Positions 1-58,429 of a DNA stretch of 64,000 nt are shown in pieces. The stretch is from NCBI GenBank assembly GCA_050084515.1, contig CM114271.1:5146001-5210000 (forward strand), in the 5' to 3' direction. Position 1 is the first letter of the stretch, and the number at the start of each line of letters is the position of its first letter. The position numbers were made by a program, and so were the translations under genes. Under the pieces are notes generated by a model. That model did not search any database. It saw only the letters and a list, made by a program, of their open reading frames with translations, and was not told where the DNA came from. The DNA comes from Blasia pusilla (Eukaryota).

Positions 1-290
1 CCTTGACCTCCTACATCAGGTCAAGAGCCAAGGAGGTGACTTGGGAGAATAGGTTACCATGGAGAGAGCTTGGGAGAGGAGAGGGGTATACCTCAAGGAG
101 AGAGAGCTTGAGAGCTCATTCTCTCTTTGTTGAACCTCTTGGCATGAGGCACGGAGCTATGGTACCTTGCCTTGTGAGTGTAACCCAAGCCTCTCATTAG
201 GAGAGTGGGTTTGGTTTGACATGAGAGAGAGTGCACACCTTTGAGAGCTATGGTGTGAGATGGTGGAGAGAGAGATTGGATCTTACTTTA
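1..290 (+). repeat. Terminal repeat A1 of copy 1 (partial)
   Basis: Matches 9667-9957 with about 4 differences by eye; homology ends at ...GGATCTTACTTTA. Confidence 0.92.
87..130 (+). promoter_or_regulatory. Putative LTR core promoter (TATA plus initiator), predicted TSS ~118
   Basis: TATA at 87-90 and Inr-like CTCATTC at 115-121, ~28 nt apart; conserved in copy 2 (48025-48059). Confidence 0.5.
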
Positions 291-305
291 CAAAGAGAGA
301 ATGAG
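290..305 (+). promoter_or_regulatory. Putative self-priming primer binding site
   Basis: ACAAAGAGAGAATGAG, at the end of repeat A1, is the exact reverse complement of CTCATTCTCTCTTTGT (115-130). No TGG/tRNA-type PBS is present. Confidence 0.7.
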
Positions 306-1010: not shown

Positions 1011-2279
1011 ATCCATTGTCCACCCTTTGGGTGCCATTGCCGCCATTACGGAGTGGAGGGTCTTCCATGACATTCGTTGATTCTTTGACTTGCGTCGCCA
1101 CCACATACTTTGTTTTGGCCGCCACCGTCATCGCAGTTTCTTCATCAACCAGTGAAGGCAGATGACCTCTGGTTATGGTGTTTGAGTTTTGATTTCATGC
1201 TTCTATGTTGTGATTGGTAGCCGCTCGCGACGATCGAGTATCGTGCCGTGACGCCCGTAGCCGCAACACGCCGCCGATTGCCACGCCGTGCCGCTCGTGG
1301 CCGCACCGCACCATCTCGATCGCGGAGCCGCACCGTCATTGTGGAGCGAGTGTGGGATTATTATTGATTGAGGAGGGTATGCGCCGAGTGCCGCATCCCA
1401 CCATCGAGGGCCGCGTCTTTGTTCGTCGAGCCGCCTGCGTCGCCGCAACGCCGCACCGTTCGCCGGGACCGCACTTTGTCTATCGAGGAGTTTTGAGCGC
1501 ATCGATGGAGGAGGAGTATGACTTGCTGATTGGAGGAGTTGTCTCCACGATCGAGTTGGGGTCGAGATTTGCGATTCTTGCCGAGGAGCGACATCGACAT
1601 GTGTTCAGTTACCCATTCGGTCCTTTACCCTACACGTGTGAGGGATTCGGGATTTATTTGGGGATATTGGGTGTGTGGATCGAGAGCATCATTTATGTAT
1701 GTGGTTTAGGGGACATAGACTTGTGTGGGATGTCCGGAGTTGAGGGTAGGTTGTCGATGAGATGATAGCCTGGTCGATTTGCCGCACCACGCCGCGTGTT
1801 ACCGCACGTTACACGTCTCGGGGAGAGAGAGTGTAGATCGAGTGCCGCATGTTTGGGATGAGTGATTGAGGGATTCCTCACGAGGTTGAGTGATCGGGTG
1901 AGAGGGGCACGAGGGTCATCACGAGTCTATTCGGGACTTTGAGAGGCGAGGTGGTGAACCCGAGAGTAGCTCTAGAGGTTTTACGCGGATTGGCGCGAGG
2001 TTTCGAGGGTCTCCACGTGAGGGACCACCTCGACCTCCTTCTGTGTCATCGTCAGACAAAGGGGAGGGTGTAGAGGACTTTGTGAGCACATCGCCACACA
2101 TTGTGAGTGGTCCTACCAGTTGGGCGTACGAGATGGACGACCGGGGTAGAGGACGCGTAGGTTTTCAGTGCGTGAGGGCACGATTGAGTTACGATTTTAT
2201 AGCAGAGTTTAGGAGCTAGTGCGACTCCCGGCGGGCTAGGAACTCTAGAGAGTTCAACCCATTTACAGCATGGAACGGT

Positions 2280-3170
2280 ATGTTCCAGCATTTAGAGGGG
2301 GCGCCCATGGACGATTACCATGAGTTCTCTCAGAGATATGCATGTGAGATCGAGGCGTGGAGGCTCTACTATGACCCACATTATGTGTCATGGACGGAGC
2401 CGTTCCCAGATGAGGAGGAGGAGTCAGGAGAGGCTACTGCCTCTTCCACTAGTGATGTTTTAGGAGGGGTCACTCGCACGGGAGCAGTTGCACCGTCTAG
2501 TCGGGTTCGTCCCAGGTTCAACCGTGTGGTTGAGTTCTTTGCTGAGTTGAGGGCGAGCTACCAGGGGGTACGGACGGAGAAGTTGCGGAGCATCCACGAC
2601 TTCCAGAGGCGCTCGGGTGAGAGTTTGCGTGAGGCTTACACTCGCTTGCGCCGGTTGATCAACGTCACTCAGGGGGTGACAGAGGCTCAGGCTATCCAGT
2701 CATGGTATGCGATGCTGGACCGGACCCTACGGACACGGGTGCGGGAGGGGGTGCTTCTTATGAACACCTCCCCTACGTTGAGAGATGTTTTTAGGACCAC
2801 CGAGAACATTGAGCGCAACATGGCGGAGGAGAGCGTAGGCACCATGGGTTGGGCGAGAGCGATCCACGATTGTCGCACCACCTATGCAAAGAACGTGGAC
2901 TCCGAGATAGGTCGACTGTGGCACCACGAGCTCAGGGAGGATACCGAGAGGCCGTGCCACAGAGACATGTGCCTTCATATGCGGCTCAGCAGCAGCTGCC
3001 TACTATTATGTGGTGGAGCCCATCATCAGCGCGATTGCACTCGTCAGGGTCATGGACGTGTGCCTCAGCATGGAGGAGGAGATGGTGCTGCACCAGGAGG
3101 TTATCAGTGTGACTATTGTTAGAGGTATGGTCATACACGCGCCAGGTGTTTTAGTTTACATCCTGAGTTA
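2280..3170 (+). pseudogene. gag: Gag (capsid-like region plus CCHC zinc knuckles), frameshifted
   Basis: ORF 2280-3122 with QRRSGESLREAYTRL (retrotransposon gag QxxxES motif); knuckles CGGAHHQRDC and CDYC.RYGHTRARC. Confidence 0.8.
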
Positions 3171-4059
3171 CGTCTAGACCGAGGGCGAGAGAGAGCACCA
3201 GAGCGAGTAGCCGGTCCGGGTGGGCCTAGAGATCGTGCTCTAGGTGGTCCCGTTGGGGGACGAGGAGCTGGAGTTGCCCGACAGGGTGGTGGAGATGCCC
3301 GTGGAGGAGGTAGAGTACCACCACCTAGACGCGCCGAGGGAGATGCCGTACGTGAGGTGGGATGGGTGCTCCGATACAACCGGCTACAGGAGCAGATTGC
3401 CGCTATGGCATTGAGGTTACCCGATGCCGGATCCGTGGCATCGACATCATATGGAGCGCCAGAGATCCTGGAGGATCCTTGATGGATGTCGGGATTGCCA
3501 GATGGAGGCCGCAGGTTGTGACGCGTGGAGCGCCGCAGAGTTGGATCCACTCACGAGGGGAAGCCAATAAGAGACTAGGCTTCCTCAATCTTTCACGTTG
3601 TCGGCGATGAGGACCCCATCGATGAGTCCTCATCAAAGTTCCTGGAGAGTTGGTAATGTTGTTGGTATGCAAGCACGGAGGGCGATGGGATAAGCGAGTG
3701 CGACGACTCCTATTGTTGATGCTCAGGAGGGGCATGTGTCGAGCACGTTGTTGGGGCGCCACCGTTGTGTACCGCACTCCTTTATTTTCTGCCCGATGTT
3801 GTGCGTTGGGAGGTACGCCCGCCGAGGTTTTTTTGGCTGGCCGCTTCACTATGTGAGCGGAGTTGGAGTTCCGCATCACGTTCAAAGGTGATTGCAGAGG
3901 AGGTGATGGACCTGCCCTTGGAGCGGATGCTTGGGCCGTCCACGTCAGATTCATGGCAGTGCGGGTCGCTAGGATGGCGGAGATGCCCGCTAGACCCACG
4001 ATAGAGCGTGCCATGGCTTCTCCTGGTGTTGTGTTGCTTTGGATAACCAAGGAGAGGTC

Positions 4060-4440
4060 TTCTAGTTGGTGAGTCTTGGAGGTAGAGCTTTTTAGTCGCG
4101 TAGCCTTGTTGATTCAGAGCGCAACCCTTGATGTTGGGGAAAGCGTCATTTAGAGGATTGGGCTTGACGCGAGCCGATGTGGAGTGTTGTCCATTTCGGA
4201 TACTGAACATCCTTGGGTGGAGCAAGTACCACACAATATATCACCCGACAGGAGGTCGTGGTGAGGATTCGCCGGGACATCCTGAGATGAGTCCGTAGTG
4301 CGCGCCAAAGCGATAGTGGCGATGGTGAGTCCTCACGATGTCTTGGTTGGTGGAGCGATATTATACCCGATGGGGTTTTCCTGGATTACTTGGGAGAGTC
4401 GGCCTCTGAGACCAGGATGGCGTTAGGTGATGGGCGCCTT
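4060..4440 (+). pseudogene. Aspartic protease domain, degenerate
   Basis: Homologous to LLDLGAQPLMLG in copy 2 and LLDSGAQSLMLG in copy 3; downstream DVLVGG motif. Confidence 0.65.
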
Positions 4441-4809
4441 AGCTCATTACCCGTTCGATTCACAGGTGTAGTGATCGAGCAACGGCCAGGAGAGATGGCG
4501 ACCTTAGCAACATTTATCAGTGCCATCACTTGGCCTAGTGATTTGATTGAGGGACACGTCCATGCAGAGGATACTACCGTTCCTGACATTTCTATGGAGA
4601 GGAGTGTTATGGTAGCTGCATCATTCCGTGGAGGAGAGGTGCCGCTGTGGGGTTCGACTAAGGAGCTTCAACGATTGGCAGATGCGCACGTGCAAACCGC
4701 GTGGAGCGAGCGTTTGCACCAGAGCGTGACGGGTCTGAGGAACCCGAGGTAGCGGGGAGTGCTACGATGACACCCTTGGATACTAGACCCATTGTGTGGT
4801 GTACCCCGG

Positions 4810-5730
4810 AGGAGGGTATTCGAGTGTTAGATCTCTTTGGAGGGATTAGCACGGGTTAGCTGCTGATTTTGCAGGAGGAGTGCGAGTACATCGTGATTAC
4901 TTGTATGTGGAGAGTGATGATGTTTGAGGCGCGTCTCACTACGACATGTGGCGCAATTACGCCCTCGTTTTCCCGACTTATTATGCGTCGCCCGCAATAT
5001 AGGGTACCGAGTTCCCTACCGAGGATATTTTGTTGTTGGGCGCAGGACTTAGAGCGGGTAGGGACCATTGATTTGGTCATTGCCGGTTGGCCATGTCAGG
5101 GCCAATCGAGTGCTGGACGAGGCAGCGGGTTGGCTGACACTCGATCCAGGTTGTTTTGGGAGATGTTGAGGGTCTTACGGCAGTTGCAGGAGCACCAGTC
5201 TCGTTCTCCAGCCTACATTATGGAGAATGTGCCGATCTTAGGAGACTCCAAGTCACGGGTCGTGACGAGTGCTCATCAGGTGCGTGCCTGGATCGGCCCA
5301 GCAGTGTTCTTGGATGCGGCGAGTGTAGGTTCTAGAGCCCATCGCCCGCGTCTATGGTGGACCAACTTGGTGCCCCATGCGGTGTTATGGAGGGCGTATG
5401 CGAGAGTGGAGTGCCCCTCCCCTTTGTTAGTGGATTCCATTCTGGATCCAGGTCGTCGATCACAGGCAGTGAGGCACGATGATCGACCACCGTTGACGTG
5501 GGTCAACAGGGTAAGCGAGGCAGCGACGCGCCTTGCCCACGCGTTTGTGAGTTTTCCCGCTTCCTATGCATACAAGGAGGCCGGTCCTGGCTTGGTTTGG
5601 GATGACCAGGTTGGTGGAGCCCAACGCCGACGAGAGAGAGCAAGCGATGGGATTTCCCATAAGAGTGACGGCAGTACCATCAGTGTCAGAGGCATCACGA
5701 CGCCATATCTTGGGTCAGCGATGGACTGAA
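4810..5730 (+). pseudogene. C5 cytosine DNA methyltransferase domain inside pol
   Basis: Motif I VLDLFGGISTG (~4824-4856), IV DLVIAGWPCQGQS, VI YIMENV, VIII AHRPRLWW, IX EPNADEREQAMGFP, X RRHILGQ; frameshifts between motifs. Confidence 0.9.
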
Positions 5731-6194
5731 TCGCTTGACATGGATCCTCGGCTTGGGAGTGGCGAGCGGCGTCGTATGAGATCGCGACAGATCCGGGCCG
5801 GTTTGCGTTAGTGAGCCCCATGCCTACCGAGACGGTGGTGAGGCAAAGTGGTCGGGGCGAGACCGAGGAGATCTACGCACTGGGGAGATCGGAGAGACAC
5901 CCTTGGACTTCTTGGGATGTTTTGAAGGTACGCAAGGAGATGATAGCCACAACATCGGCGTGGTTTCGGAACGCACGTGGAGGAGATCGAGTTTGCGTTG
6001 GCTGCAGGAGAGCGGCCGAGTGTTGTTGTTCGAGACGGGTTGCACCATAGCAACCACCGATACCGCGCCGGAGAGTCCTACCGTAGTCACGATGGAGACT
6101 TGGGAGCCGGATATGGGCCCTAAGTTGACGGGGAGGAGAGCGGCGCCGAATACATCGATTCCTCGGGAGTTATAGGAGTTGCTTTGCGTTTAGC

Positions 6195-7520
6195 ATGGAG
6201 GATTTGGGTACGCTGAAGGGACTGGGATCCGCATTGAGTTGTCGAGTGATATGCCGATCTTCCGACAACCCTCAGTCTGATGATATGGAGAGGGCTCGAT
6301 TGAGTAGGAGCCAAGACTTGGTCGGAGCAGGACTAGTGGAGATGTCGCATGGGGAGTATGCATCCGCCCCTTTGTCATGCCCGCCAAGAAGGATGTGCAT
6401 GGCAACCGGACGGATAGGCGGATGTGTGGGGATTACCGACCTATCAATTGTGCGCAGGCGAAGTCCGATAGGTATGCCATGCCCACCCCCGAGGAGATCT
6501 TTGATGCGATTGATCACGCAAAGGTCTTCAGTTCATTGGATTTGCGAGTTGGATACCATCAGCTGCCTATCAGATTGGAGGACAGGTAGAAGATGGCATT
6601 TTGGGGCATCGATCCTCACGGGAAGGATTGTTTGTACCAGTGGCGGTTCTTACCATTTGGGTTAAAGAACGCTTGGACTGAGTTTCAGAGGGTCATGGAT
6701 AGGATCTTGGCTGGTCCGGATTTTGCTAGGTGTTATATTGATGACATCGTAGTCTTTAGCGCCACGGTTGAGGAGCACGAGCAACATCTAGAGGAGGTGT
6801 TTCGACGATTGCAATTACATGGGCTGAAGCTACATCCAGGCAAGTGCAAGTTCTTCTACGACCAGATTGAGTACTTGGGTCATACGATATACCCAGGGGG
6901 CCTTGGTGTTCAGCAGACGAAGGTAGAGGCTATCTCACACATTCCACGCCCTCTGAGATGTGAGCCGTGTTCGCGCATTCATGGGATTGGCGAACTTCTA
7001 TCGGCGATACGTTAAGGATTGATTCGATTATGGCGGCCGACCTTGCTCACCAAGGTGGATCACGAGTGGTACTGGGGGGATGAGCAGGAGCGAGCATTTC
7101 GATTGCTCAGGGCGGGTTGGCGTCCGCACCCATCTTGAGGAGACCGATCGGGGCGTCCTTTCGATTGCACCGCAGATTGGAGCATGTTGGGGCTTGAGTG
7201 GTGCTCACCCAAAGATGATGATGAGGGTAGAGAGTTTGTGGTGGCTTACGCTAGCCGCTCGAACAACGCTGCAGAGGCAAAGTGCATTCGTATGAGGGTG
7301 AGTGCTTGGTCGGTGTGGTCATCGCGCATTTCAGGTGTTACTTATTCGGCAACCCCTTTACCATCATCACTAATCATCAACCACTGAAGTGGTTGATGGA
7401 GTCCGACAAGCTTACAGGGAAGCTTGCGAGATGGGCTCTGTTGTTGTAGGAGTATGATTTTCAGGTGGTACATAGACCTGGAACGCTCAACCAGGATGCA
7501 GATGGGTTGAGTCGTAACCC
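6195..7520 (+). pseudogene. pol: Reverse transcriptase and RNase H
   Basis: RMCGDYRPIN, FSSLDLRVGYHQ, LPFGLKNA, YIDDIVVF, KCKF, YLGH; RNase H VVAYASRS and NQDADGLSR; stops and frameshifts. Confidence 0.92.
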
Positions 7521-7749
7521 ATGCCCGAGTCGGCCGAGATCGACCGGAGCTCGATGGCATGGAGAGAGTGATGAGGAGTCGGTGCCAGGATGGCACGCGT
7601 CGGCCTATTTAGGCATGTTGGCTATGGAGAGCGCAGTGTGGAGACCGATGGCGAGGTCTAGTGGAGAGTCTTTGGATCCCGAGGCCGGTGAGGACACGAC
7701 AAGTGGCGAGATATTCATGATGATGGAGTAGTCTTAGAGTACCTTCGTC

Positions 7750-9138
7750 TTGGCGGCCTTTGAAAGCACCATGGATGCTAGAGAGCGGGATCGGATCCTA
7801 CAGCGGGCCAGACGGTTCCGTTGGGAGGGGACACATGTTTTGAGGGTTTGGGAGGATGGCAGAGTACGCGTAGTGCCGCATCCTTTGCAGAGAGCACGAC
7901 TAGTGCAGCATGCCCACGAGGAGTTGGGTCACTTTGGGGTGAAGCGGACGTATAGCTTGCTCGAGATTCGATATTGGTGGCGAGGCATGCGATCGGCGTT
8001 CAGCAGTTTGTTGCCAGGTGCATGGTGTGTGATCGGGTCCGAGCATTGTTCAATGCTCCGACTCCACAGTTGCATCCATTATCGATCATGGGCTTAGGGT
8101 ATAGATGGAGTTTGGATTTTGCAGGACCTTTGCCCTTGACGGAGCGTCACTGTCGTTATGTGTTGGTGATGGTCGAGCACTTCTCAAAGTGGATCGAGTT
8201 GGTTGCATTGCCTGACAAAGCAAGTGAGGGAGTAGGTTATGCCTTCCTTGACAGAGTGCTGAGTCATTATGGCGCACCAGCTGAGGTGTTGACAGACTAG
8301 GGTACCGAGTTTCGCGGTGAGTTCCAAGCCTTGTGTGATCAGGCGCTGATCGACCACCGCACGACTTCGCGAGATCATCCTGAGGCGGATGGATTAGCGG
8401 AGAGAGTTGTGCAAACGGTGAAGAGGGGTTTACGCAAGTATGGCTTGCAGAGATGTCACCTAGGAGATTGGGACCTCCAGTTGCCATGGTTGGCGATGGG
8501 ATATAGATTCAGCAAGCAGGCATCCTTAGCGTCTTTTTCACCGTACTTGCTACTTTATGGCGAGAGCGATTTACTGCGGCCATTTGTCGAGATCTTTGGT
8601 GAGGTCTTGAACCTTGATGACCCAAATGTATGGGTGCGAGCATATTCTCGAGGGTGAGTTATTTTCGAGAGTGATGCCCATGGCGTTCGAGAACTTGGCG
8701 ATTGCACAACATCGGATACGTTGAGGTATGCGACTATTCGAGGTGGTGGTTATCGACCAACTATCCGGAGGTTTCATGAGGGACATTATGTCTATTTGCG
8801 CAGACGGCACCAACGGCGTTGGATGTGATGCAGGCGCACTATCCCGAGAGTGCGTGACATTTTGCCATCGGGTGTTCTCTTGTTGGAGGGACGCGATGGT
8901 ATGGTATGGAAGGACCATGTGCGTAATTGTGCGCCATGTCACCTTCCTAACATTGATGGTACAGTAGATCCGAGCTTAGTAGTAGTTCCCGCAGCTTGCG
9001 TTGTATGTTGTGTGGTTTGCCTGTAGTGCCACGATGCTAGTCTGTGATGGGTGTTCGAGAGGATGGCATATGGCATGTTTGACGCCACCTCTCACTAGGG
9101 TTCCTCAAGGACGATGGATGTGTCCCAGATGTACATAG
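7750..9138 (+). pseudogene. DDE integrase with C-terminal PHD finger
   Basis: HEELGHFG...CMVC (HHCC), WSLDFAGP, VLTD, HPEADGLAER. The 3' end encodes CMLC...CDGC.RGWHMAC...WMCPRC, then TAG at 9136-9138. Confidence 0.9.
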
Positions 9139-9308: not shown

Positions 9309-9317
9309 AGGGGGCGA
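9309..9317 (+). promoter_or_regulatory. Polypurine tract (plus-strand primer)
   Basis: AGGGGGCGA at the start of repeat B1; the equivalent in copy 3 is AGGGGGGGAG (minus strand, ~56612-56621). Confidence 0.65.
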
Positions 9318-9444
9318 TTGGAGATATTTTGGTTCTTCTTGTCTCGTTGTTTGGATGCCATGAGTTAGCATGGGATCATGCGTGTTTGTGTGTGTGTTCG
9401 GTGACAGCGATGTATGTTGTGTAGCGATGTGTATGCGCACGACA
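9317..9444 (+). repeat. Terminal repeat B1 (128 bp)
   Basis: Identical by eye to 9958-10085; ends CACGACA. Confidence 0.93.
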
Positions 9445-9446
9445 GT

Positions 9447-9957
9447 TGTCACGTCTTTGAGGATAGATCGGTGGGATCTAATAGAGCGCCTTCATGAGTA
9501 GTGGAGGACACGCCCGATGAGGTCGAGGGTGACGTCTTTGGCGCTTGGAAACCTGAGATAGCATGTTTCCCCGCGTTCGGCTCATTTGGAGCCATATTGA
9601 GAACTTACTATTTTAGGTAAGTACCATTTTGAGTATATGATCGACTTACTATTTTTGGTAAGTGGCCCTTGACCTCCTACATCAGGTCAAGAGCCAAGGA
9701 GGTGACTTGGGAGAATAGGTTACGATGGAGAGAGCTTGGGAGAGGAGAGGGGTATACCTCAAGGAGAGAGAGCTTGAGAGCTCATTCTCTCTTTGTTGAA
9801 CCTCTTGGCATGAGGCGGCGGAGCTATGGTACCTTGCCTTGTGAGTGTAACCCAAGCCTCTTATTAGGAGAGTGGATTTGGTTTGACATGAGAGAGAGTG
9901 CACACCTTTGAGAGCTATGGTGTGAGATGGTGGAGAGAGAGATTGGATCTTACTTTA
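9447..9957 (+). repeat. Terminal repeat A2 (511 bp)
   Basis: Starts TGTCACG; matches 1-290 and 47720-48229. Confidence 0.92.
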
Positions 9958-10085
9958 ATTGGAGATATTTTGGTTCTTCTTGTCTCGTTGTTTGGATGCC
10001 ATGAGTTAGCATGGGATCATGCGTGTTTGTGTGTGTGTTCGGTGACAGCGATGTATGTTGTGTAGCGATGTGTATGCGCACGACA
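9958..10085 (+). repeat. Terminal repeat B2, the right end of copy 1
   Basis: Duplicate of 9317-9444; ends ...CACGACA. Confidence 0.93.
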
Positions 10086-15996: not shown

Positions 15997-16410
<414 letters not shown>

Positions 16411-17944
16411 AATACATACAACCTCTACTAGATGATTCAATATCTTATTACAACGTCTTTATAGGGAAGCTAATAAAATTTGTTTAATTTTCAATAGGGG
16501 AAGGAGATGGTAAGAGAGGAGGAACACACTGATGGTCTTCTTGTCATGTCTATTGTCACTTCCGTGACCGTTGAAAGCCCATATTCCAACATATTTTGGA
16601 TTGATTTGCTATGTTTGGGACTATTTCCATCGAAAATTATTTTTTGGTGGGCACATAGACTTTGTTTTTGGGACAGTTGGATGGTCACGATGGTCTTTGA
16701 ATGCCCATGGGATCCAACTCTAAGAGAGTAGAGGTATGAAGAGGGTAAAGATTGAGAGTAAGGCGGAAGGGGTGGAAAAATGAGGAAGATGGAGAGAACT
16801 TCCATCTTTTAGCAAGAGAGAGTTAGATCCTCCATAGAAAAACTCATAGAGGAGGTATGGAGCTCAGTGGATCCCTTCCTCTCTATGAAGAGCGAGAGAT
16901 GGATGGGCTTGTTTCCTTACTTGATTCCATACAGTTCTAGAAGGATAGAAAGGGAGTGACCTATAAAATTTAATGGAATATATATCTATTGCCATCAACA
17001 TGAATCTAAAATTCTTCTATCTTGTGAATTTTAGAGTGCACGTATATTGTTTAGCAACGTATATTTGACATGACTCAAAAAACTGCTCACTAGTGGGGCG
17101 TCCTTTTTGCTGTTTCCGAGCCGACTGTGACCTTCACACACTCGACTCTTCTGGCTGGGTTTTCCATCACCCTTCTTATTGAGGCCTCATATGAAAACAA
17201 ACAACGAAAAATATCACCACGAAATTTTGCATTGGTGAAAGAGCACATCAATTGATGTTCACCACAAACGTTTGTGGTTGATGTGCACCACAAACGACGG
17301 GCGACCTGATGCAAGAGGTCACCTCACTGGCCGTAACAGGTGCCAAAGTCGCATTCCAGAGCTGCGATAAGCGGCGTCGCTGAGCGGAAATAGCACTGGT
17401 TAGTTGGATATTAGGTAAGGGAAGCGGTGACGTCACTAGTCTCGTGCGACGTTGTGAACTCGCTGTGGAAACGGAATGCGGAAAGCGGAAACGATTCGCG
17501 GCGACGCGGCATTGGCCCAGGACGTGAGTGAGGCACCGCACGGAGACCTATTCCGGCCTATGGACGTCCGTTTCTTTGCAGGAAAGGCGGCACGTGATAC
17601 GAAGGACGTCATTGGTTTCGGTCACGAACTCGACGGAGGCTCTCCCATCGCTCGTGGACCTGAACACTCGCGCTTTCCTACGGTCGAAAACGCGTCGCGT
17701 GAACCGTCCAATCCTGGCGGCTTTCATGGGACCGACACCTGTCCGTCGCATGAAAGTAACAAACTGAGTACCGGGTGTCCTTTCCCCGCGAACGCGAGAA
17801 GTAAAACTCGTCGGGTGAAACCGAGCGTTTACCGGGTTTCGGGTGAAAGCGTGGGCCTGAAGCCCAGGCGAGAAGGTTGGGGGGTACTATCAGCCCGTGT
17901 TATCGCGAAGGAGCGGTGGGAGCGAATCGGAGAACGGAGGATTT

Positions 17945-47719: not shown

Positions 47720-48229
47720 TGTCACGTCTTTTAGGATAAATTGGTGAGATCTAGTAGAGCGCCTTTGTGAGTAGTGGAGGACACACCCAATAGGTTGAGG
47801 ATGACCTATTGAGGCCCCGAAAAACCTGAGAGAGCATGTTTCCCCTTCGTTTCGTCTCATTTGGAGCCATATTGAGGAACTTACTATTTTAGGTATGTAC
47901 CATTTGAGTATATGACTGACTTTCTATTTTTGGTATGACCCTTGACCTCCTACATAAGGTCAAGAGCCAAGGAGGTGACTTGGGAGAATAGGTTACCATG
48001 GAGAGAGCTTGGGAGAGGGGAGGGTATACCTCAAGGAGAGAGAGCTTGAGAGCTCATTCTCTCTTTGTTGAACCTCTTGGCATGAGGCGGCGGAGCTATG
48101 GTCCCTTGCCTTGTGAGTGTAACCCGAGCCTCTCATTAGGACAGTGGGTTTGGTTTGACATGAGAGAGAGTGCACACCTTTGAGAGCTATGGTATGAGAT
48201 GGTGTAGAGAGAGATTGGATCTTACTTTA
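47720..48229 (+). repeat. Complete 5' repeat A1 of copy 2, with no adjacent B segment
   Basis: Matches 9447-9957; preceded by unrelated DNA and followed directly by internal sequence. Confidence 0.9.
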
Positions 48230-51200
48230 CAAAGAGAGAATGAGAGAGTGAGAGAGCTTCATGGGGGAGCTCGCTGGTCACTTGTTGTTTTTTCAGGTTG
48301 GGGACTGTGTTCCCCATTCAGCGGTTCATGGGAGTGCTCACCGGAGCAAGGGCTACTTTGATTGTTCTTTGCATTTGCCGATTTTTCGTGTGGAAGAGTG
48401 GCGCGCGGAAGCGCTGCCCAATTTTTGAAAGGGATTGAGTATGGGGGCGGGTTGCCCCATGCCAGTGGTCTCGAGAGCACCATGTAGCTTGCTGATTTGT
48501 ATTTTTACAGGTTTTACATTTTCGTTGGGAGAAATCAGCGCGGAAGGGCTGCCAAATTTTGTGTAGGATAAAGAGACATTGGGCTTTACAAAAGTCCCTG
48601 TCAAATTTTACTGGAATTTTCGATTCTAAATTTTTTTCAATGTTGTTGTAGAACGTGAAGCTATGCCCGTTGTGCAACAAACAGTGCGCAATTTGGAGTT
48701 GCGAGCAAAAATTCATGCTCAATCTTGCAAAATTGCAATTGCTAGGCGATTTTTAGGGTTAAATTGTTCAAACCCTAAACCAGCCGCCACGCCGGTGGCG
48801 GCCGTCGCCGTCATAGTCATCGTCACCGGTCCGCCGTCAATGGTCAACCGTCACCATCAACGGTCAACCATCACCGTCAATGGTCAACCGTCCGTTGTCC
48901 ACCCTTTGGTTGCCATTGCCGCCATTACGGAGTGGAGGGTCTTCCACGACGTTCCTTGATTCTCTGACTTGCGTCGCCATCACGTACTGTGTTTTGGCCG
49001 CCACCGTCATCGCAGTTTCGTCATCAACGAGTGATGGCAGATGACCTCCGGTTATGGTGTTTGAGTTTTGATTTCAAGCTGCTATGTTGTGATTGGTAAC
49101 CGCTTGACGACGATAGAGTATCGTGCCGTGACGCTTGTAGCCGCACCGCGCTACTGATTGCCACGACGTGCCGCTCATGGCCACACCGCACTGTCTCGAT
49201 CACGGAGCCGCATCGTCATTGTGGAACAGAGTGTGGGTTTATTGTTGATTGAGGAGGGTATGCCGCCGAGTGCCGCATCCCACCATTCAAGGTCGTGCCG
49301 TTCGTAGCCGTTCCGTGCCGCCTGCAACGCTGCACCGTTCCGCTGGAACCGCACTGTCTATCGAGGAGTTTTGAGCAGCGTCAGTACGGGAGGAGTATGA
49401 CTTGCTGATTGGAGGAGTTATCTCTACGACCGAGTTGGGATCGAGATTTGTAGTTGTTGAGGAGCGACATCGACATGTGTTCAGGTTACCCATTCTGGTC
49501 CTTTACCCTGCACGTGTGAGGGATTCTGGGATTTTGGTAGTTTATTTGGGGATATTGGGTTTGTGGATGCTGAGAGCATCATTTATGTATGTGGTTTAGG
49601 GGACATTGACCTGTGTGGGATGTCCGGAGTGGAGGGTAGGTTTTTGATGAGATGATAACCTGGTCGATTTTCCTCACCACGCTGCGTGTTGCCGCACGTT
49701 ACACGTCTCGGGGAGGGAGAGTGCAGATCGAGTGCCACATGTTTGGGATGAGTGATTGAGGGATTACTCACAAGGTTCAGAGTGATTGGGTGAGAGGGGC
49801 ACGAGGGTCATCACGGAGTCCGTTCGGGACTTTGAGAGGCTAGGTGGTGAACCCGAGAGTAGCTCTAGAGGTTTTGCGTGGAGTGGCGTGAGGTTCCGAG
49901 GATCTCCACGTGAGGGACCACCTCGACCTCCTTGTGTGTCATTGTCAGACAAGGGGGAGGGTGTAGAGGAGTTTGTGAGCACATCGCCACACATTGTGAG
50001 TGGTCCTACGAGTTGGGCGTACAAGATGGACGACCGGGGTAGATGACCGCGTAGGTTTTTAGGTGCAGTAGGCACGATTTCATAGCAGAGTTAAGGAGTT
50101 GGTGCGACTCTCAGCAGGCCAGGAACTCTAGAGAGTTCAACCCGCTTACAGCATGGAATGGTATGTTCCAGCATTTAGAGGGGGCGCCCATGGATGATTA
50201 CCATGAGTTCTCTGAGAGATATGCACGTGAGATCGAGGCGTGGATGCTCTACTTTGACCCACATTATGTGTCATGGACGGAGCCGTTCCCAGATGAGGAG
50301 GAGGAGTCAGGAGAGGCTACTTCCTCTTCCACTAGTGACATTTTAGGAGGGGTCACTCGCACAGGAGCAGTTGCACCGTCTAGTCAGTTCGTCCCATGTT
50401 CAACCATGTGGTTGAGTTCTTTGCTGAGTTGAGGGCGAGGTACCAAGGGGTACGGACGGAGAAGTTGCGGAGCATCCATGACTTCCATAGGTGCCCAGGT
50501 GAGAGTTTGCGTGAGGCTTACACTCGCTTGCGCCGGTTGATCAACGTCACTCAGGGGATAATAGAGGCTCAGGCTATCCAGTCATGGTATGCGATGCTTG
50601 AACGGACCCTGCGGACACGGGTGCGGGAGGGGGTGCTTCTTATGAACACCTTCCCTATATTGAGAGATGTTTTTAGGACCGCCGTGAACATTGAGCGCAA
50701 CGTGGCGGAGGAGAGCGTAGCCACCATGGGTTCTGGATGAGATCAGTCACGATTGTCTGCACCACCTGTGTAGCAACATGGACTCCGAGATAGGTCGACT
50801 GTGGCACCACCAGCTCAGGGAGGATACCGGGAGGCCGTGCCATAGAGACCTACGCCTTCATATGTGGCTCAGCAGCAGCCGCCTACTATTACTTGTTGGT
50901 CATGTGGTGGAGCCCATCATCAGCGCGATTGCACTCGTCAGGGTCATGGACGTGTGCCTCAACATGGAAGAGGAGATGGTACTGCACCAGGAGGTTATCA
51001 GTGTGACTATTGTGAGAGGTATGGTCATACACGCGCCAGGTGTTTTAGTTTACATCCTGAGTTACGTCCGGACCGAGGGCCAGAGAGGGCATCAGAGTGA
51101 GTAGCCAGTCCGGGTGGGTCTAGAGATCGTGCACCACGTGGTCCCGTTGGGGACGAAGAGTTGGAGTTTCCCGATAGGGTGGTGGAGCTGCCTGTGGAGG

Positions 51201-52709
51201 AGGAAGAGTACCACCACCTAGATGCGCCAAGGGAGACGCTGGACGTGAGGCTTGGATGGTTGCTCAGATACAACAGCTACAGGAGCAGATTGCCGCCAGA
51301 TCCGTGGCATCAACATCGTATGGAGCAGCCAGAGATCTTGATGATCCTGGTTGGATGTGCAGGGTTGCCCAGATGGAGGCCGCCGCAGTTCTAGCGCGTG
51401 GAGCAGCCGTAGAGTTGGATCCACAGCGAGGGGAAGCCAGAAAACAAATTAGGCTTCCTCAATCTTTCACGTTGTCTGAAGTGATGACGACCCCATCGAT
51501 GGGTCCTCATCAAAGTTCCTAGAGAGTTGGTGATGTTGTTGGTGTGCAGGCACGGAGGGCGATGGGAGAAACGAGTGTGATGACTCCTATTGTTGATGCT
51601 CAGGAGGGGCATGTGTCGAGCATGTTGTTGGGGGCGGCCACCATTGTGTACCCCACTCCTTTATTTTATGCTTCCAATGTTATGACGTTGGGGGGTACGC
51701 CCGCCAAGGCTTTTCACTTGGCCGCTTCACTATGTGAGTGCGGAGTTGGAGTTCCTACATCACGTTCAAAGGTGATTGCAGAGGAGGTGATGGACCTGCC
51801 CTTGGAGCGGATGCTAAGGCCCTCCACGTCAGATTCATGGCAGGCTGCGGCTGCTAGGATGGCGCAGATACCCGCTAGACCCGCGATAGAGCGTGCCATG
51901 GCTTCTCCTAGTGTTGTGTTGCTGGATAACCAAGAAGAGGTCTTCCAGTTGGTGAGTCCTAGAGGTAGAGCTTTTAGTCTGCAGCTCGTCTTGTTGGATT
52001 TAGGAGCGCAACCCTTGATGTTGGGGAAAGGGTCATTCAGAGTATTGGGCTTGACGAGAGCCGATGTGGAGCGTTGTCCATTCCCGGTACAAACATCGTT
52101 GGGTGGAGCAAGTTACACACAGTATATCACCCGACAAGAGGTCGTGGTGAGGATTCGCCCGGGATATCCTACAGATAAGTCAGTGGTGCGCGCCAAGGCG
52201 ATAGTGACTGATGTAGAGTCCTAGGACGTCTTGGTTGGTGGAGCAATGTTATACCCGATGGGGTTTTCCTTGGATTACTGGGAGGAGTCGGCGTCCTACA
52301 GACCAGGATGGCAGGCAGATGATGGGCGCCTTAGCTCATTACCCCTTTGATTCACAGGTGTAGTAATCGAGCAACGGCCAGGAGAGATGGCGACCTTAGC
52401 AGCATTTAGCAGTGTCATCACTTGGCCTAGTGATTTGATTGAGGGACATGTCCATGCAGAGGATACTCCCGTTCCTGATATTTCTATGGAGAGGAGTGTT
52501 ATGGTAGCTGCATCATTCCGTGGAGGAGAGGTGCTGCTCTGGGGCTCGACTCAGGAGCTTCGACGATTGGCAGATGAGCATTTGCAGACCGCGTGGAGCG
52601 AGGCGTTTGCACTGGAGCGTGACGGGTCTAAGGAACCCGAGGTAGTAGGGAGTGCTACGATGACACCCTTGGATACCACACCCATTGTGTGGTGTACCTC
52701 GGAGGAGGG

Positions 52710-53375
52710 TATTCAAGTGTTAGATCTCTTTGGAGGGATTAGCACCGGGTTAGATGTTCTTTTGCACGCACGAGTGTGAGTACAGCAATACCTACATGTG
52801 GAGAGTGATGATGTTGCGAGGGGTAACTACGACATGTGGCGCAGTTACGCCTATGTTTTCTTGACTTATTGTCTGCATCCGCAATACAAGGATACCAGAG
52901 TTTCCTACCGAGGGATATTTCATTGTTGGGGGCGCAGGACTTAGAGCGGGTAGGGACCATTGATTTGGTCATTGCAGGTTGGCCATGTCAGGGCCAATTG
53001 AGTGCTGGACGAGGCAGCGGGTTGGCTGACACTCGGTCGAGGTTGTTTTGGGAGATTTTGAGGGTCTTACGGCAGTTGCAGGAGCACCAATCTTGTTCTC
53101 CAGCCTACATTCTTGAGAATGTGCCGATCTTAGGAGACTCCTGGTCACGGGTGGTGACGAGTGCTCATCAGGTGCGCGCCTCGATCGGCCAAGCAATGTT
53201 CTTGGATGCGGCGAGTGTAGGTTCTAGAGCCCATCTCCCGCGTCTATGGTGGACCAACTTGGTGCCCCATGCAGTGTTATGGAGGGCGTATGCGAGAGCG
53301 AAGCGTCCCTCCCATTTGTTAGTGGATTCCATTCTGGATCCGAGTCGTCGATCATAGGCAGTGAGGCACGATGAT
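52710..53375 (+). pseudogene. C5 DNA methyltransferase domain (motifs I-VIII) of copy 2
   Basis: VLDLFGGISTG, DLVIAGWPCQGQ, YILENV, AHLPRLWW. Confidence 0.88.
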
Positions 53376-53482
53376 TGTCGTGCGAATCCACATCGTCATA
53401 CAACATACATCGCTGATATACCATACTCACATACATACATAACATAGACGAGAGCATCCACAAACACAAGTATACCACAACT
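53376..53482 (-). repeat. Terminal repeat B2 of copy 3 (107 bp)
   Basis: Near-identical to 56507-56613; ends CACGACA on the minus strand. Confidence 0.9.
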
Positions 53483-53704
53483 GAAATCCGTGAAAGATCT
53501 ACTATCATAAAACACGTATAGAATCACATACAATCGAGCCAAACCCACTCCACGATGGGAGAATCTAGGTCAAAGCTTGCGGGAAACACCATAGCCAAGA
53601 GCTTTACTCACTACCAAGGCTAATTCCCAACGCAACAGGCTCAACTCAAAGAACTAACAGCTCTTCGAGTGCACTCCACCTTATATCCTCTAACCTAAGA
53701 GCGG

Positions 53705-56355
53705 TGTTGTATCGAGAATCTTTCTTCGAGCAAGGGCGGGCCTTCTAGCTGCGGTAGATGCGGTCGATGCAAGGTGAACTCTCTAATAAGTTCTCCTTTT
53801 TCAATACAAAATTATGATGTACACTCTCCATTCTCTCACGACAGGTATCACAAATGGAAGTGCCGAGGCGATCACTTCTTCGTAACATCGGACCCCGAAA
53901 TTCCTAACTATAAAATCCCTATAAACTATTTTACGTTTGTACACGAGGAAGATATCACAACTAGTGTTAAACCCTACTTGACCAGGCCTATTGACATCCA
54001 TGGATCGCTATATAAGGACATACAAAGCACAATCCCATGTCCTTCCATATGTGACGATAGGAAGAATCACCGGAGTTGGAGATTGCATGATATGGTTCAT
54101 GAACGCCTCCCCAAAGTGATAAACTAAATAGCGAGTGAACCAGTGCCTATCTACAAAGAGTACCTTGACATGGTAAGGATTGAGGAAAGGAAAGTCGGGC
54201 ATAGCTCGTGCTCCACCCCTATCCATGCTTGACAGACATTCTCTACTCTCCTCAAGAATGGGTTTTGGCGGAGTTATTCTCCCAAGAGGGGTAATCCACT
54301 CTCATTGGGAAAGTAACAAGCCAAAACATCCGCTATTTTAGTATGACTAAACTCCTCTACGATGACAAACCTCTCATCCCCCCCACACACACACACCACA
54401 CTCTAGAAACCTCTCGAAGAATAGACCATGATCAAGTTACTCTCCCAAGAGGGGTGATCCACTGTCATTGGAAGAGCAAGCAATCCCAAAGCCATACACT
54501 CAAGAGAGACACGAGAGACTCAAGATGTGGAATAGAAGGTGATGAACCCTTGAAGGTCCCTCCTCTTTATATACTCACAAGGGATCCACAAGAGTAGAAA
54601 AATAGAGCTTATCTTATCTTGTGCCACATGGCTTCCTCTCAAGGCTTAGCCAATCACATTTTGACACAAGTAGATTTCCTCTTATCTCTTCCAAAATATC
54701 CTCTTTTACCCACATGATATTTTCCAAATTACCCCAACTAACCTAGCCACCAACCAAGACTACTTTTGCTTTTCATTAAAGCAACTACTTTACTTTTATA
54801 AAGTCATCTTTTATTTATTACCTCCTTTTCCTAAAGTTGGGCCCGCATAAAAGAGGCACCATAAAGAGGTTTAAACATAAGAATCTCTTTTTTCTAAGCC
54901 AATTTACTTAATACTAATGAAACTCTATCTAACACTTAATGACGAAGGAGTTTACATTAATCGTTGATTTTACTATACGACATTCACCCCCTCCAAACCT
55001 GCACATCCTCCGGTATGTGCCCAAAAACATCAAGACTTCTTGCTATAGACTTACTTATGTTGTGCCTCTAGACACATTCAATCGAAATCAAGAAATCCTT
55101 CACGTCTTTGGAAAATCTTGACCCTTTTTCCTGCAATGGGCAGCTTGAGAATTGTGCCATCTAGTTCACGTAGTTTGTAAGTGGCATTGTCAAAAGCAAA
55201 GACTACAACATGTGGACCAAACCAACGATGTGCAAACTTCTTAATTGTACTATGCTGGTTGTCAAGGCTGTTGTCGTGCACCAAGACCCAATCTCCTTCT
55301 CTTATCGACTTCTTCCGAAGTCGATGAGTTTTGTCGAAGCGCTCCTTATTTTTCAACCTTGCTTCCTTCATTTTGACTAACGCTTCTGCAATATCCTCTT
55401 CCCGCCGCTCTAGCTGTTGCATTCGAAATGCTAGGAGCTCTTCCCTATTGAGCCCGTCTTCCCACGACAAACCCATCCAAGTGGGTATATCTCCTTCTGC
55501 TGGCATTATCGGCTTTTGACCTGTCATCAAACTCAGAGGCATGAACCCTCGAATTGTCTTTGTGAGTGGTTCTATCTACCCATAATGCAAATGGAAGTAA
55601 TCTAGGCCAATTAGCATAACGATCTCCACACGCCTTTACCAATGCTTGAATGATTGGCGGATGTCCCCTTTCGCTCTTGCCGTTTGCCTCCGGATTCATG
55701 GAGTTTGTTAATCTCAACTAGACTCCATATCTCCTGAAGAACTCTCGTGCTTCCTCCGCATTCAACTCACCTCTATCTGCACGGATTCTCCCGACACTCC
55801 CATATCTAGCAACAATATCCTCTAGAATAAAACGACATATAGGCTCTGTTGTTTTAGCCCGTAAAGCCCTCCCTTCTACAAATTTGGACAACTCTTCTCG
55901 TGCTAGGACCAGGTAACGGATTCCCCAAAGACCTAGTGGCATAGCAACTAGATCTATAACCCATTGATGATGAATAGACAAAGGATACGTGGGTTTAAGT
56001 CCATCTCTCACCCTGATTTTTGATTGAAACTGATATTCAACACACGACCCAACATATCTCTCAACATCCTTATATAGGCCTTTCCACCAATACCTCTTTT
56101 TTATCTTGGTGAAAGTTGCCCAAGTACCTCTGTGACCTGCCCATAAAGAATTGTGGAATTCTTTGAGCACTTGCATTTTTGTCCCATTTTCATCCACCAC
56201 CCTCAAGGGCATTCCATCTTTCCTCTTTGGCCTTTTCCAAAGATATCCATCTTGTAGTAGATAGCCATACGCCTTGTGCCGAATCTCCTTGAAGAACTTT
56301 TCTGTCCACCCTCCATCTCTTTGCAGAGTGCTTAAATAGCGCCCAATTTCTTTTA
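53705..56355 (-). mobile_element. Family D Gypsy fragment (integrase, PPT, 3' LTR 53705-54982) nested in repeat A2 of copy 3; 5' part deleted
   Basis: GHRG...WWKG...C, WVIDL, ADRGE, NPEANGKSERG, RWFGP; PPT GGAGGGGGTGAA next to an LTR running TGTCGTAT...ATACAACA. Confidence 0.85.
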
Positions 56356-56506
56356 ACCTGCCCTACTGGAAAAGTCACCCTCAACTGAGTAACCCCCAAC
56401 CCTATGTATGAAATCGCATCTCTACCTAGACACTGCGGCCCTACATAAGGTATGGCCTCTACTAGCACATTATAGTCTACGACCTAAACCGTATGGTCAT
56501 GACAGT

Positions 56507-56613
56507 TGTCGTGCGAATCCACATCGTCATACAACATACATCGTTGATATACCATACTCATCTACATACATAACATAGATGAGAGCATCCACAAACATAA
56601 GTGTACCACAACT
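56507..56613 (-). repeat. Terminal repeat B1 of copy 3
   Basis: Follows the PPT; followed on the minus strand by AC and then TGTCATG (start of A2). Confidence 0.9.
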
Positions 56614-56784
56614 CCCCCCCTAACTGGCGGTTAGATCCCTCTAACTCCCAGGTAGCCCTATACATCTACTACATATTATACACCTTCTTGGGTGCACGAA
56701 TTAGAAGGCCGGGTGCTAGGTTGCCCCATCATTAGTCGCACATATGTAATCCATATCATACAAAGATCAAGTCATCTACCTCTC

Positions 56785-58150
56785 CTAAGTACATCGAAGA
56801 CAAACCCACCTTCCAGTAGGAACAACATCCATACGTGGAGTCAAACACATCATGTGCCAACCCCTAGAACACCGATCACACACCAATATACGGGCTGCGT
56901 TACCAACAAACCCACACAACATGCATCTCAAGCTAGCACGTATTATGGCTAAGCTTGGGTCAACAGTACCATCCACATTTGGAAGATGACATGGCGTACA
57001 ATTACGTACATGGTCCTTCCAAACAACTCCATCACGACCCTCCAACATGAGAACTCCAGAAGCTAACACCTCGCGCACTCGTAAAATAGTGCGGCGTGCC
57101 GTCACATCCAACGTTGTCGGTGCAATCTGCTGCAAATAGACATAGTCCCCCACATGGAACCTACGAATCGATGGTCGATAACCTCTACCCCGAATGGTTG
57201 CATACCGCAACGTATCCATGTGTTGAGCAATGGCAAGATTCTCAAAGGCTGTTGGCATAACTTTCCGAAAGAGCTCTGCACGCTGAGAACACAGTCTCAT
57301 CCACATCTCTGGGTCATCAAGGTTCACCACCTCACTAGACTCCCGACGAATTGCTGCTGGCAAGTCTGGATCTCGGCCGTATAACAAAAAATAAGGTGAG
57401 AAGGAAGCCAAGGATGCTTGGCGACTCAACCTATACCCCATGGCTAACCATGGCAACTGAATATCCCAGTCTCCAAGATGCCCCTTCTGTAGGCCATACT
57501 TGCGCAATGCCCTCTTCACCGTCTGAACCACACGCTCAGCCAAACCATCCGCCTCTGGATGATCTCGAGACGTGGTCCGATGATCAATCAACGCCTTGTC
57601 ACACAAGACTGAAACTCACCTTGAAACTCAGACCTTGGTCGGTCAAAGACTTCATTTGGTGCACCAAAATGACTACGCACTCTATCAAGAAACGCATACG
57701 CCGTTCCCTCACTTGCCTTGTCAGGTAATGCCACCAACTCAATCCACTTGGAGAAGTACTCCACCATCACCAACACATATCGATGATATCGTACAGTCAG
57801 CGGTAATGGTCCCGCAAAGTTCACACTCCAACGGTAATCCAACCCCATAATAGGCAAGGGGTGTAATTGTGGTGTAGGGGCATTAAATGATGCCCTCACC
57901 CGGTCACAAACCATACAATATGACACCAACTACTGCACGTGAGTATGCATGCCACGCCACCAATACTGACCAAGGAGTAAGCTATACGTACGCTTTACCC
58001 CAAAATGTCCCAACTCCTCATGGGCATGTCGCACAATGCGCTCTCTCTGAGCCAAATGCGGCACTACTCGTACTCTACCATCCTCCCACACACGTGAATA
58101 TGTGTTCCCTCCAATCGATACCTCTTAGCACGTTGAAGAACACGGTCTCA
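56785..58150 (-). pseudogene. Integrase with C-terminal PHD finger (copy 3)
   Basis: HPEADGLAER; CMLC...CDRC.RGWHMMC...WVCLRC (C4HC3). Confidence 0.9.
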
Positions 58151-58429
58151 CTCCTTGGCACTCACTATGCCTGGCACCCTATTGGTCCGTAGGAACTCCA
58201 ACACCAACGCATCATCATGAATATCATACTGATCCGTACCACCATCTCCAATCTTAGGATCTGAAGGCTGGCCATCTACCTTCTGACTAGAGTAAGATAT
58301 CATGTGGTTCTCCATACTAGAGTCCACCCCTAACCAACATAAAAAGGCGGATGCATGCCAACCTGGCACCATCTCCTCATCAACCTCGCCATGCCATCTA
58401 GCCCCAGTTGTATCCTCTTGGCTAGTACA

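Follow-up and report, generated by a model that had tools for sequence, protein, structure and literature searches.

Within a 64,000-nucleotide (nt) stretch of the Blasia pusilla genome (NCBI GenBank assembly GCA_050084515.1, contig CM114271.1, positions 5,146,001 to 5,210,000 of the forward strand; hereafter the window, in whose coordinates positions are given), we examined a retrotransposon present in two related copies and a third, more distant one. By its predicted products the element is of the Ty3/gypsy type, with gag, protease, DNMT3-like methylase, reverse transcriptase (RT)/RNase H, DDE integrase and PHD finger, and it probably starts reverse transcription by Tf1-like self-priming, as suggested by a 16-nt complementarity between the presumed start of its RNA and the site directly after its first repeat. 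Self-priming is a rare start of reverse transcription that, to our knowledge, has been proven only in fission-yeast Tf1. The present case would extend it to elements of another kind, namely a Gypsy lineage of bryophytes that carries a methylase and a PHD finger and whose split repeats resemble those of DIRS.

The repeats of the element are read in the order A1-internal-B1-NN-A2-B2; the element starts with TGTCACG and ends with CGACA. Copies 1 and 2 are 88-91% identical, hence related rather than independent. Copy 1 is degenerate, with stops and frameshifts, and has a leader of 1.8 kilobases (kb) between A1 and gag. The features at the two 5′ ends are the following.

1..290, plus strand: repeat A1 of copy 1, truncated at its 5′ side by the window start to the final 290 of about 511 nt
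87..90, plus strand: TATA box of copy 1, 28 nt ahead of the 5′ arm
115..130, plus strand: 5′ arm of copy 1, proposed first 16 nt of the element RNA and putative self-primer (from complementarity, fold and pair counts)
290..305, plus strand: 3′ arm of copy 1, putative primer-binding site, complementary to 115-130 and forming the top-ranked long-range helix within ±1250 nt
47720..48229, plus strand: repeat A1 of copy 2, starting TGTCACG, with its TATA at 48025-48028 and its 5′ arm at 48053-48068
48229..48244, plus strand: 3′ arm of copy 2, putative primer-binding site (from complementarity and fold)

Direct string comparison confirms the perfect 16-nt complement on which an earlier, sequence-only reading of this stretch was built: 115-130 (CTCATTCTCTCTTTGT) is the exact reverse complement of 290-305 (ACAAAGAGAGAATGAG) at 16 of 16 nt, and the helix is not extendable at either end, 114/306 and 131/289 being unpaired. 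That reading also had both halves unchanged in copy 2 and the 5′ segment lying about 28 nt below a TATA. Both statements hold, as identical strings stand at 48053-48068 (5′ arm) and 48229-48244 (3′ arm) and the distance is 28 nt in both copies, the copy-1 TATA aligning with the TATAAA of a second family described below. The loop between the arms measures 159-160 nt. The 5′ arm string occurs three times in the window (115, 9781 and 48053), once per copy of repeat A; the 3′ arm string occurs only twice (290 and 48229), each time directly 3′ of a 5′ copy of A. Minimum free energy folds pair the arms in both copies (115-320, z = -3.72; 48053-48260, z = -2.74).

The final base of A1 is also the first of the 3′ arm. 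Between 1-290 and 9667-9957 the identity is 98.3%, and homology stops at 290, with divergence at the next base. The end previously assigned to A1 is therefore right; its extent is not, since the window starts inside A1 and a full A, as measured on 47720-48229 and 9447-9957, has about 510 nt.

Such a match could be a chance complementarity between low-complexity GA/CT sequences, inherited by both window copies. The arms in the window (family 1) are indeed CT/GA-rich, repeat A is full of GA runs and the two copies are related. However, when A of copy 2 with 40 further nt was dinucleotide-shuffled 2000 times, no shuffle produced a complement of at least 12 nt anchored at -6 to +10 of the end of A, the maximum being 11 nt, seen once. 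Because no shuffle attained 12 nt, we take chance to be excluded as the source of the helix. Furthermore, the arms have non-repetitive ends (CTCATT and TTTGT) and are still paired at 16 of 16 positions although copies 1 and 2 differ by 9-12% overall, and the same anchored helix is found in three further families whose arms are neither GA/CT runs nor of low complexity. Taken together, this leaves the coincidence with a negligible probability. The concern over low complexity raised in the sequence-only reading thus applies to the family 1 arms and not to those of families 2-4.

Across the window, 32 perfect inverted repeats have arms of at least 11 nt within 550 nt. Nine have arms of at least 16 nt: six are tight hairpins (loop at most 22 nt) and three have a loop above 100 nt, namely both copies of the arm pair and an unrelated pair at 42680/42869. 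This last repeat (42680-42695 / 42869-42884, ACCCATTTTTTAGCCC, loop 173) lies in GC-rich sequence downstream of a C-rich run and of a TA microsatellite; nothing was seen that ties it to the element family, and we rejected it as a fifth arm family because it appears unrelated. Separately, a perfect 14-nt hairpin with a 2-nt loop lies at the extreme end of the window (63971-64000), in the leader of copy 3.

For relatives outside the window, an alignment of 14 of 29 gag-methylase proteins was used to scan metagenome contigs. Thereby 321 stretches were matched and 151 relatives obtained, of which the best 80 were analysed; long-range helices were sought in the 2.5-4 kb upstream of gag, and perfect inverted repeats were scanned over all loci. 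MAFFT failed to bring the arms of different families into common columns, and pairs were counted by script with the register fixed at the inner helix ends. Three near-identical pairs of loci (L041/L042, L019/L018 and L023/L020) are each to be counted once. In the list, the 5′ arm is given before the 3′ arm.

Family 1 (the window): CTCATTCTCTCTTTGT / ACAAAGAGAGAATGAG, loop 159-160
Family 2 (L027, L004, L041/L042, L025): ACATAGTTCTTTGAGT / ACTCAAAGAACTATGT, loop 158-159
Family 3 (L047, L054, L064-66, L078, L075, L074, L079): TAGTTTTT[CT]TAGAATT / AATTCTAGAAAAACT., loop 110-128
Family 4 (L036): GACATTCTTGTCAAGT / ACTTGACAAGAATGTC, loop 172

The four families have unrelated arm sequences in the same layout: the 5′ arm lies 26-34 nt past a TATA, the 3′ arm abuts the end of A1, the loop is 110-172 nt long and the helix, of 15-17 nt, stands at the same place. 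In each of 17 copies, 13-16 of 16 positions form Watson-Crick pairs, and four copies (L004, L075, L074 and L079) have one G-U pair each. Representatives of the families form 15-16 of 16 pairs with their own 3′ arm compared to 5-8 with that of another family, and between representatives 8-11 of the 16 pairs are changed on both sides and 0-1 on one side. Covariation of this kind in divergent subfamilies had been named beforehand as a check on self-priming, and it is about the strongest support that can be obtained from sequence alone. The 5′ arms of families 1 and 2 end in the same aligned column, just ahead of a conserved TGA[AG]CC. In the RNAalifold consensus of seven family 3 copies the arm helix closes the structure, with further stems inside the loop.

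The position of the helix relative to the TATA is equally consistent. The loci, 721,912 nt in all, contain 39 perfect inverted repeats of at least 13 nt (loop 90-260) that are not of low complexity, and eight of these are the arm pair. A TATA[AT] is found 26-34 nt ahead of the 5′ arm in 8/8 arm pairs, compared to 1/31 of the other repeats, the exception lying in AT-rich sequence of L069. Complementarity thus reaches its outer limit at the start expected of a TATA-driven RNA.

This spacing bears on the possibility that the inverted repeat works as DNA, for instance by forming a hairpin for recombination or integrase binding that would assist in producing the split repeats. Such a role would suit the unusual repeat architecture, the arms flanking exactly the R-U5-like part of A. 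Nonetheless, the outer helix limit follows the expected RNA start after the TATA, the G-U wobbles in 4 of the 17 copies keep the RNA helix and not a DNA helix, and the integrase-type ends (TGTCA...CGACA), like their internal joint, are found away from the arms, where A starts and B ends. We therefore consider a function as DNA very unlikely.

Several helices and repeats were set aside. Those in L016, L035, L019 and L021/L024 were left out of the counts, as their placement relative to the repeat end was not establishable, the one in L016 lying in a tandem repeat. The repeats of 921 base pairs (bp) in L064/L078 gave no anchored helix and are not the A repeats; the real helix of these loci is further upstream.

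Some observations weigh against self-priming, in addition to the base composition of the family 1 arms and of repeat A. Within families we found no compensatory double changes, only G-U wobbles and mismatches, and the covariation, being confined to comparisons between families, amounts to about four independent events. In Tf1, each cycle copies the primer sequence into the primer site. If this also holds here, covariation would arise mechanically and would be no separate sign of selection, though it would still be evidence for self-priming. Long-range helices within ±1250 nt were ranked at 16 5′ ends: the one at the end of A1 comes first in seven and third to sixth in three (L074, L079 and L025). 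It is absent in the other six, where the arms are mutated (L019/L018, L023/L020) or the 5′ arm is lacking (L005, L012), a loss which we assume to reflect decay of old copies. For family 4, which offers a single copy of A, the end of A is not independently defined. A tRNA fragment could formally still serve as the primer of any single family. Finally, no pile of RNA-sequencing read starts is seen at 115 or 9781, at depth bins of 340 nt that are too coarse for this purpose and with most reads coming from other copies.

The second line of evidence comes from the ends of the repeats, which involve the following features.

9309..9316, plus strand: polypurine tract of copy 1, degenerate (AGGGGGCG; AGGGGGGAG in transcribed relatives)
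9317..9444, plus strand: repeat B1 of copy 1, 100% identical to 9958-10085
9445..9446, plus strand: two-base spacer GT, inside the conserved joint CACGACA-NN-TGTCACG
9447..9957, plus strand: repeat A2 of copy 1, full length, containing a copy of the 5′ arm at 9781-9796
9958..10085, plus strand: repeat B2 of copy 1, with the element end ...CGACA at 10085
48245..53375, plus strand: internal part of copy 2, 88% identical to copy 1 and cut at 53375 by the end of copy 3
53375..63548, minus strand: copy 3, a family 2 relative, from the gag start at 63548 to B2 at 53482-53375, with B1 at 56613-56506 and an A2 interrupted by other DNA
16099..16411, plus strand: diverged A′-B′ terminal fragment with the same order and end as copy 1, its 5′ arm having one change

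Copy 3 also reads polypurine tract-B1-AC-A2...B2, and it ends in CGACA where it interrupts copy 2 at 53375. A homologue of the family 2 5′ arm lies in its A2 at 53660-53644; its A1 and primer site fall beyond the window end. The fragment at 16099-16411 is without a primer-binding site because it is a 3′-type end.

In families 1, 2 and 3, A1 and A2 diverge 0-3 nt past the first base of the 3′ arm, the boundary of family 2 having been drawn from an alignment of eleven 5′ copies with two A2-B2 copies. At the other side, a run of G directly precedes B1: AGGGGGCG in this copy of family 1 or AGGGGGGAG in its transcribed relatives, GGGGGGGAG in family 2 and 5-9 G in family 3. The A2/B2 joint takes the end of A and the initial 1-3 bases of the 3′ arm and continues with the first bases past the polypurine run. 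It reads CTTT-A-ATTGGAG in family 1, TTTTC-A-GTTGTGG in family 2 and CAATTT-AA-GATACATG or CAATTT-AAT-ATACATG in family 3. Blunt joining of a linear complementary DNA (cDNA) would give just this if the polypurine tract set its left end and a primer on the 3′ arm its right end, which supports the end of A as a true cDNA end. The sequence-only reading had fixed the cDNA end at this point, and both the divergence of A1 and A2 within 0-3 nt in three families and the A2/B2 joint bear it out.

This boundary also bears on a further alternative, in which the helix is conserved as an RNA structure for some other purpose (such as packaging, dimerisation, control of translation or help with strand transfer) and the primer is a tRNA fragment or some other small RNA. 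Neither the RNA start nor the primer was observed directly, and the stems that RNAalifold places inside the loop suggest that the region may be a larger structured leader. However, the primer-set edge of A lies within 0-3 nt of the start of the 3′ arm in three families, which obliges a primer to anneal at precisely this point; the only feature common to the four 3′ arms is the complementarity of each to its own TATA-proximal segment; and four different foreign primers, each mimicked by the element's own RNA start, would be far less economical. We therefore judge another function of the helix, with a foreign primer, to be unlikely. Self-priming, which the sequence-only reading had proposed for this family, is supported by the anchored helix in four families, the TATA spacing and the boundary of A.

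Conventional primer sites were sought as well. No TGG is found within 40 nt after A1, and none of the four 3′ arms starts with TGG, so that pairing with the CCA 3′ end of a whole mature transfer RNA (tRNA) is not expected; an internal tRNA fragment could still pair. Rfam gave no match in 47600-48800, and ARAGORN reported no tRNA gene in the 64-kb window and about one in the 722 kb of loci, too few to stand for the host tRNA set. At 14965-14976 on the minus strand, TGGTATCAGAGT is one mismatch away from what we take to be a primer site of the initiator tRNA-Met type, and it abuts a repeat at 14979-15897 that matches 44197-45124 inverted. A single match of this type is not significant alone, at least one being found in 28 of 100 shuffles. 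The repeat beside it is presumably the family, called E in the sequence-only reading, that was said there to have a tRNA-Met site.

From these elements, the following mechanism can be proposed. Repeat A would be the R-U5-bearing part of a permuted long terminal repeat (LTR), with transcription starting about 28 nt past the TATA, at or near 115. The leading ~16 nt of the transcript would anneal to 290-305 after A1, either by folding back or in trans on a second RNA molecule; a putative RNase H nick after the duplex would free a 3′-OH that primes minus-strand DNA as in Tf1, making a tRNA dispensable. Plus-strand DNA would start at the G-rich polypurine tract directly before B1, and the repeat defined by reverse transcription would be B-NN-A. 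The cDNA ends would then be joined head to tail, giving the A2/B2 joint, and integrase would open the conserved CA-NN-TG between B and A. The outcome would be the genomic A1-internal-B1-NN-A2-B2 with TGTCA...CGACA ends and 4-bp target duplications.

These steps differ in strength. In this scheme we infer the RNA start, the RNase H nick, priming in cis or in trans and the circular or concatemeric intermediate. The path from RNA start to minus-strand priming appears strongly supported by the covariation and the boundary of A. The plus-strand start and the B-NN-A cDNA repeat would follow from the position of the polypurine tract. Head-to-tail joining with opening by integrase is the least secure step, and a concatemer or the product of template switching would do equally well as the intermediate.

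The joint between B1 and A2 agrees with such an opening. It reads CACGACA-NN-TGTCA[CT]G in 12 of the 12 instances retrieved by that pattern from the loci and the window, with GC, AC, GT, TC or AT as spacer; one longer spacer was met. Complete elements with A1, B1, A2 and B2 are found at three loci (L075, L074 and L079), of which two are flanked by 4-bp target duplications, ACCA (L079) and CCTA (L074). The ends in TG...CA, the short target duplications and the presence of a DDE integrase, with no tyrosine recombinase among 13 open reading frames (ORFs) scanned, indicate integrase-type insertion. At L074, the 82 nt before A1 (1339-1420) and those after B2 (12202-12283) are 85% alike and may be a repeated target or part of a larger duplicated unit.

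Two results speak against the circle step. L075 is ambiguous, its target duplication matching at three of four positions and its joint also being ambiguous. None of the 5′ ends examined shows the isomer A-B-A-internal-B, which would be expected if a two-repeat circle were opened at random. As for the circle model of the sequence-only reading, its A2/B2 joint fits, while the circular topology is something we infer; a circular intermediate is plausible and unproven, and we hold it only tentatively. For the lineage as a whole, it is possible, if rather doubtful, that self-primed B-A cDNA is joined head to tail and then opened by DDE integrase at a built-in CA-NN-TG site. A separate arrangement at L036 (8560-9317) reads B-NN-A and then primer site and leader instead of B2, the leader matching the start of the locus; this suggests two tandem elements that share one B-A unit, as a concatemer or a product of unequal recombination.

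The ends set by reverse transcription (end of A, start of B) thus would differ from those set by integrase (start of A, end of B). This mismatch makes the replication of split repeats, with head-to-tail or circular cDNA as the substrate of integration, a testable question. If the proposed scheme is true, a circle-junction or concatemer form would be the obligatory integration substrate of a retroviral-type integrase, and split direct repeats would be the footprint of a head-to-tail pathway and not a hallmark of tyrosine recombinases. Annotation pipelines built on tRNA-type sites and pairs of plain LTRs will overlook the lineage or set its limits wrongly.

Retroviral two-LTR circles offer a parallel, as the A2/B2 joint corresponds to a U5 end, extended by 1-3 bases of the primer site, that meets the first bases past the polypurine tract, and the CA-NN-TG of B1/A2 resembles integrase-type ends set head to tail. 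Two-LTR circles of retroviruses are regarded as dead-end products, whereas here the joint is part of every integrated copy. With DIRS, Ngaro and PAT elements the lineage shares the order A1-internal-B1-A2-B2 and a replication model that needs a head-to-tail joint. Those elements use a tyrosine recombinase and lack target-site duplications; here a DDE integrase is found instead of a tyrosine recombinase in the 13 ORFs, the ends are of the TG...CA type and two of the three complete relatives have 4-bp target duplications. Even for DIRS, circles are not an established fact, since amplification of DIRS-1 reportedly proceeds through linear single-stranded cDNA.

The repeat order has a described counterpart. 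In the available excerpts of de Mendoza et al. 2018, A-coding-B-A-B is given as the order of SymbioDIRS, and the legend of Fig. 4c states that KnitGypsy-Dnmt3 of Klebsormidium nitens has the same repeat structure as a DIRS element (PMC5890265). The A-coding-B-A-B order was met here in copy 1, copy 3, L075, L074 and L079. KnitGypsy-Dnmt3 resembles our element in its Gypsy-type domain set with a DNMT3-type methylase in Pol and in its repeat order; its host is a charophyte alga, compared to liverwort-like DNA and moss-type metagenome contigs here. The terms 'primer binding' and 'split direct' do not occur in the text of that study (PMC5890265).

As for self-priming itself, excerpts of the literature report it as shown for Tf1 and proposed for Tj1 (PMC4600332), and as predicted for the Tf1/sushi group, the Tcn1 clade (in mosses and club-mosses) and the TAR Ty1/copia elements (PMC6317226; PMC2864245). 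The plant survey of Neumann et al. 2019, in its main text, predicts it for 12% of the covered elements (PMC6317226). The words Marchantia, liverwort and methyltransferase do not appear in that main text, the supplementary tables of which may bear on such elements. Like Tcn1 and TAR, the present lineage would be a case predicted from sequence in non-seed plants; its DNMT3 and PHD domains and split repeats are not described for Tcn1 in the main text of the survey (PMC6317226). A literature search combining self-priming, retrotransposon and Marchantia found nothing, and the excerpted text of PMC11982613 does not describe the present element.

Tf1/Tf2 (Schizosaccharomyces pombe), Tj1 (S. japonicus) and the Tf1/sushi elements resemble the element of the window in that a primer site directly after the 5′ repeat, with no tRNA site in those elements, is complementary to the RNA start, here a predicted one, and also in the Ty3/gypsy-type RT and DDE integrase. 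The duplex has 11 nt in Tf1 compared to 15-17 nt here. The Tf1/sushi elements have a chromodomain and two plain LTRs, whereas the present lineage has a PHD finger, a DNMT3-like domain and split A-internal-B-A-B repeats, and we liken them by mechanism and not by phylogeny. The comparison with the Tf1 group drawn in the sequence-only reading therefore stands for the mechanism and fails for group membership.

Transcription was assessed with three raw-read RNA-sequencing runs of the same species label and one contig run, mapped on 1-10200 at a likeness of at least 90%. The three raw-read runs gave 3887, 3908 and 4105 reads, with sense about 10-fold above antisense. Depth is highest over A and the 3′ third and falls in the last bin (end of A2, B2 and flank). 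Between 3199 and 3360 reads per run are only 90-95% alike and 18-21 per run are at least 99% alike, which indicates that mainly other copies are transcribed. Near the polypurine tract, reads show loose ends at 9293 and a G insertion behind 9309. Recurrent read joints, with 2-7 reads per run, run from 8899 to 9945 (skipping 1045 nt), from 9261 to 9751 (skipping 489) and from 325 back to 154 (172 nt, near the primer site), and an additional joint links 10085 to 1520. Most simply these are variant or nested copies; they could also be deletion derivatives or products of processing.

The coding regions of copy 1 are predicted as follows.

2190..3224, plus strand: gag with CCHC zinc knuckle, degenerate (tblastn with Marchantia-type polyproteins; ORF list)
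4207..4710, plus strand: protease-like region, aligning to the part of relatives whose consensus holds LLDSGA, which we take to be a protease motif
4860..5729, plus strand: DNMT3-like cytosine-5 DNA methyltransferase domain (DNMT3A in PDB, E = 7e-07; TIGR00675, E = 1e-10; PF00145 in relatives)
6101..7845, plus strand: RT and RNase H, frameshifted (Ty3 RT, the only relative matched among solved structures, E = 6.5e-17; tblastn)
7956..8657, plus strand: DDE integrase core, interrupted by an in-frame stop at 8298-8300 (two consecutive pieces, matching 129-195 and 197-243 of an IS481-type transposase profile)

Relatives match PF00078 and PF00665. A PDB search with the first half of the integrase gave no match. 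The DNMT3-like methylase is present in all three copies (4860-5729; ~52830-53438; ~60140-61150, minus strand), and its closest database proteins, from Marchantia polymorpha, Calypogeia fissa and Sphagnum, are 45-68% identical over the methylase part, which points to a liverwort-like bryophyte as host. In these three genera, the methylase relatives bear the label of ordinary hypothetical proteins. A metagenome relative (P0028) has its methylase part aligned between the RNase H end and the integrase, not ahead of the RT, so that two domain orders seem to exist.

In copy 3, which is better preserved than copy 1, the pol product read from 56785-57615 (minus strand) ends in 45 residues that match PHD fingers of the DPF2/CHD4 type (E = 3e-12). 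No chromodomain was found at this C-terminus: among the 60 of 99 matches listed, none falls outside the PHD stretch (residues 226-276) except Ty3 Gag-Pol on the integrase part. Some matching chains are chromodomain-helicase proteins, aligned through their PHD fingers. The PHD finger thus sits where chromoviruses have a chromodomain, and it may be a different chromatin-reading module for targeting.

Other repeats lie in and around the copies. The A2 of copy 3 extends over about 3 kb owing to nested DNA, including a repeat at 53943-54982 that is also found at 10083-11129, directly after B2 of copy 1, and at 32861-33890. A long (GA)n microsatellite (16007-16107) takes the place of the upstream part of the diverged A′ fragment. 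Finally, the leaders of copies 1 and 2 (~880-1010 and 48820-48900) contain a tandem run of units of about 20 nt resembling GTCAACCGTCACCATCAACG, which was spotted by eye.

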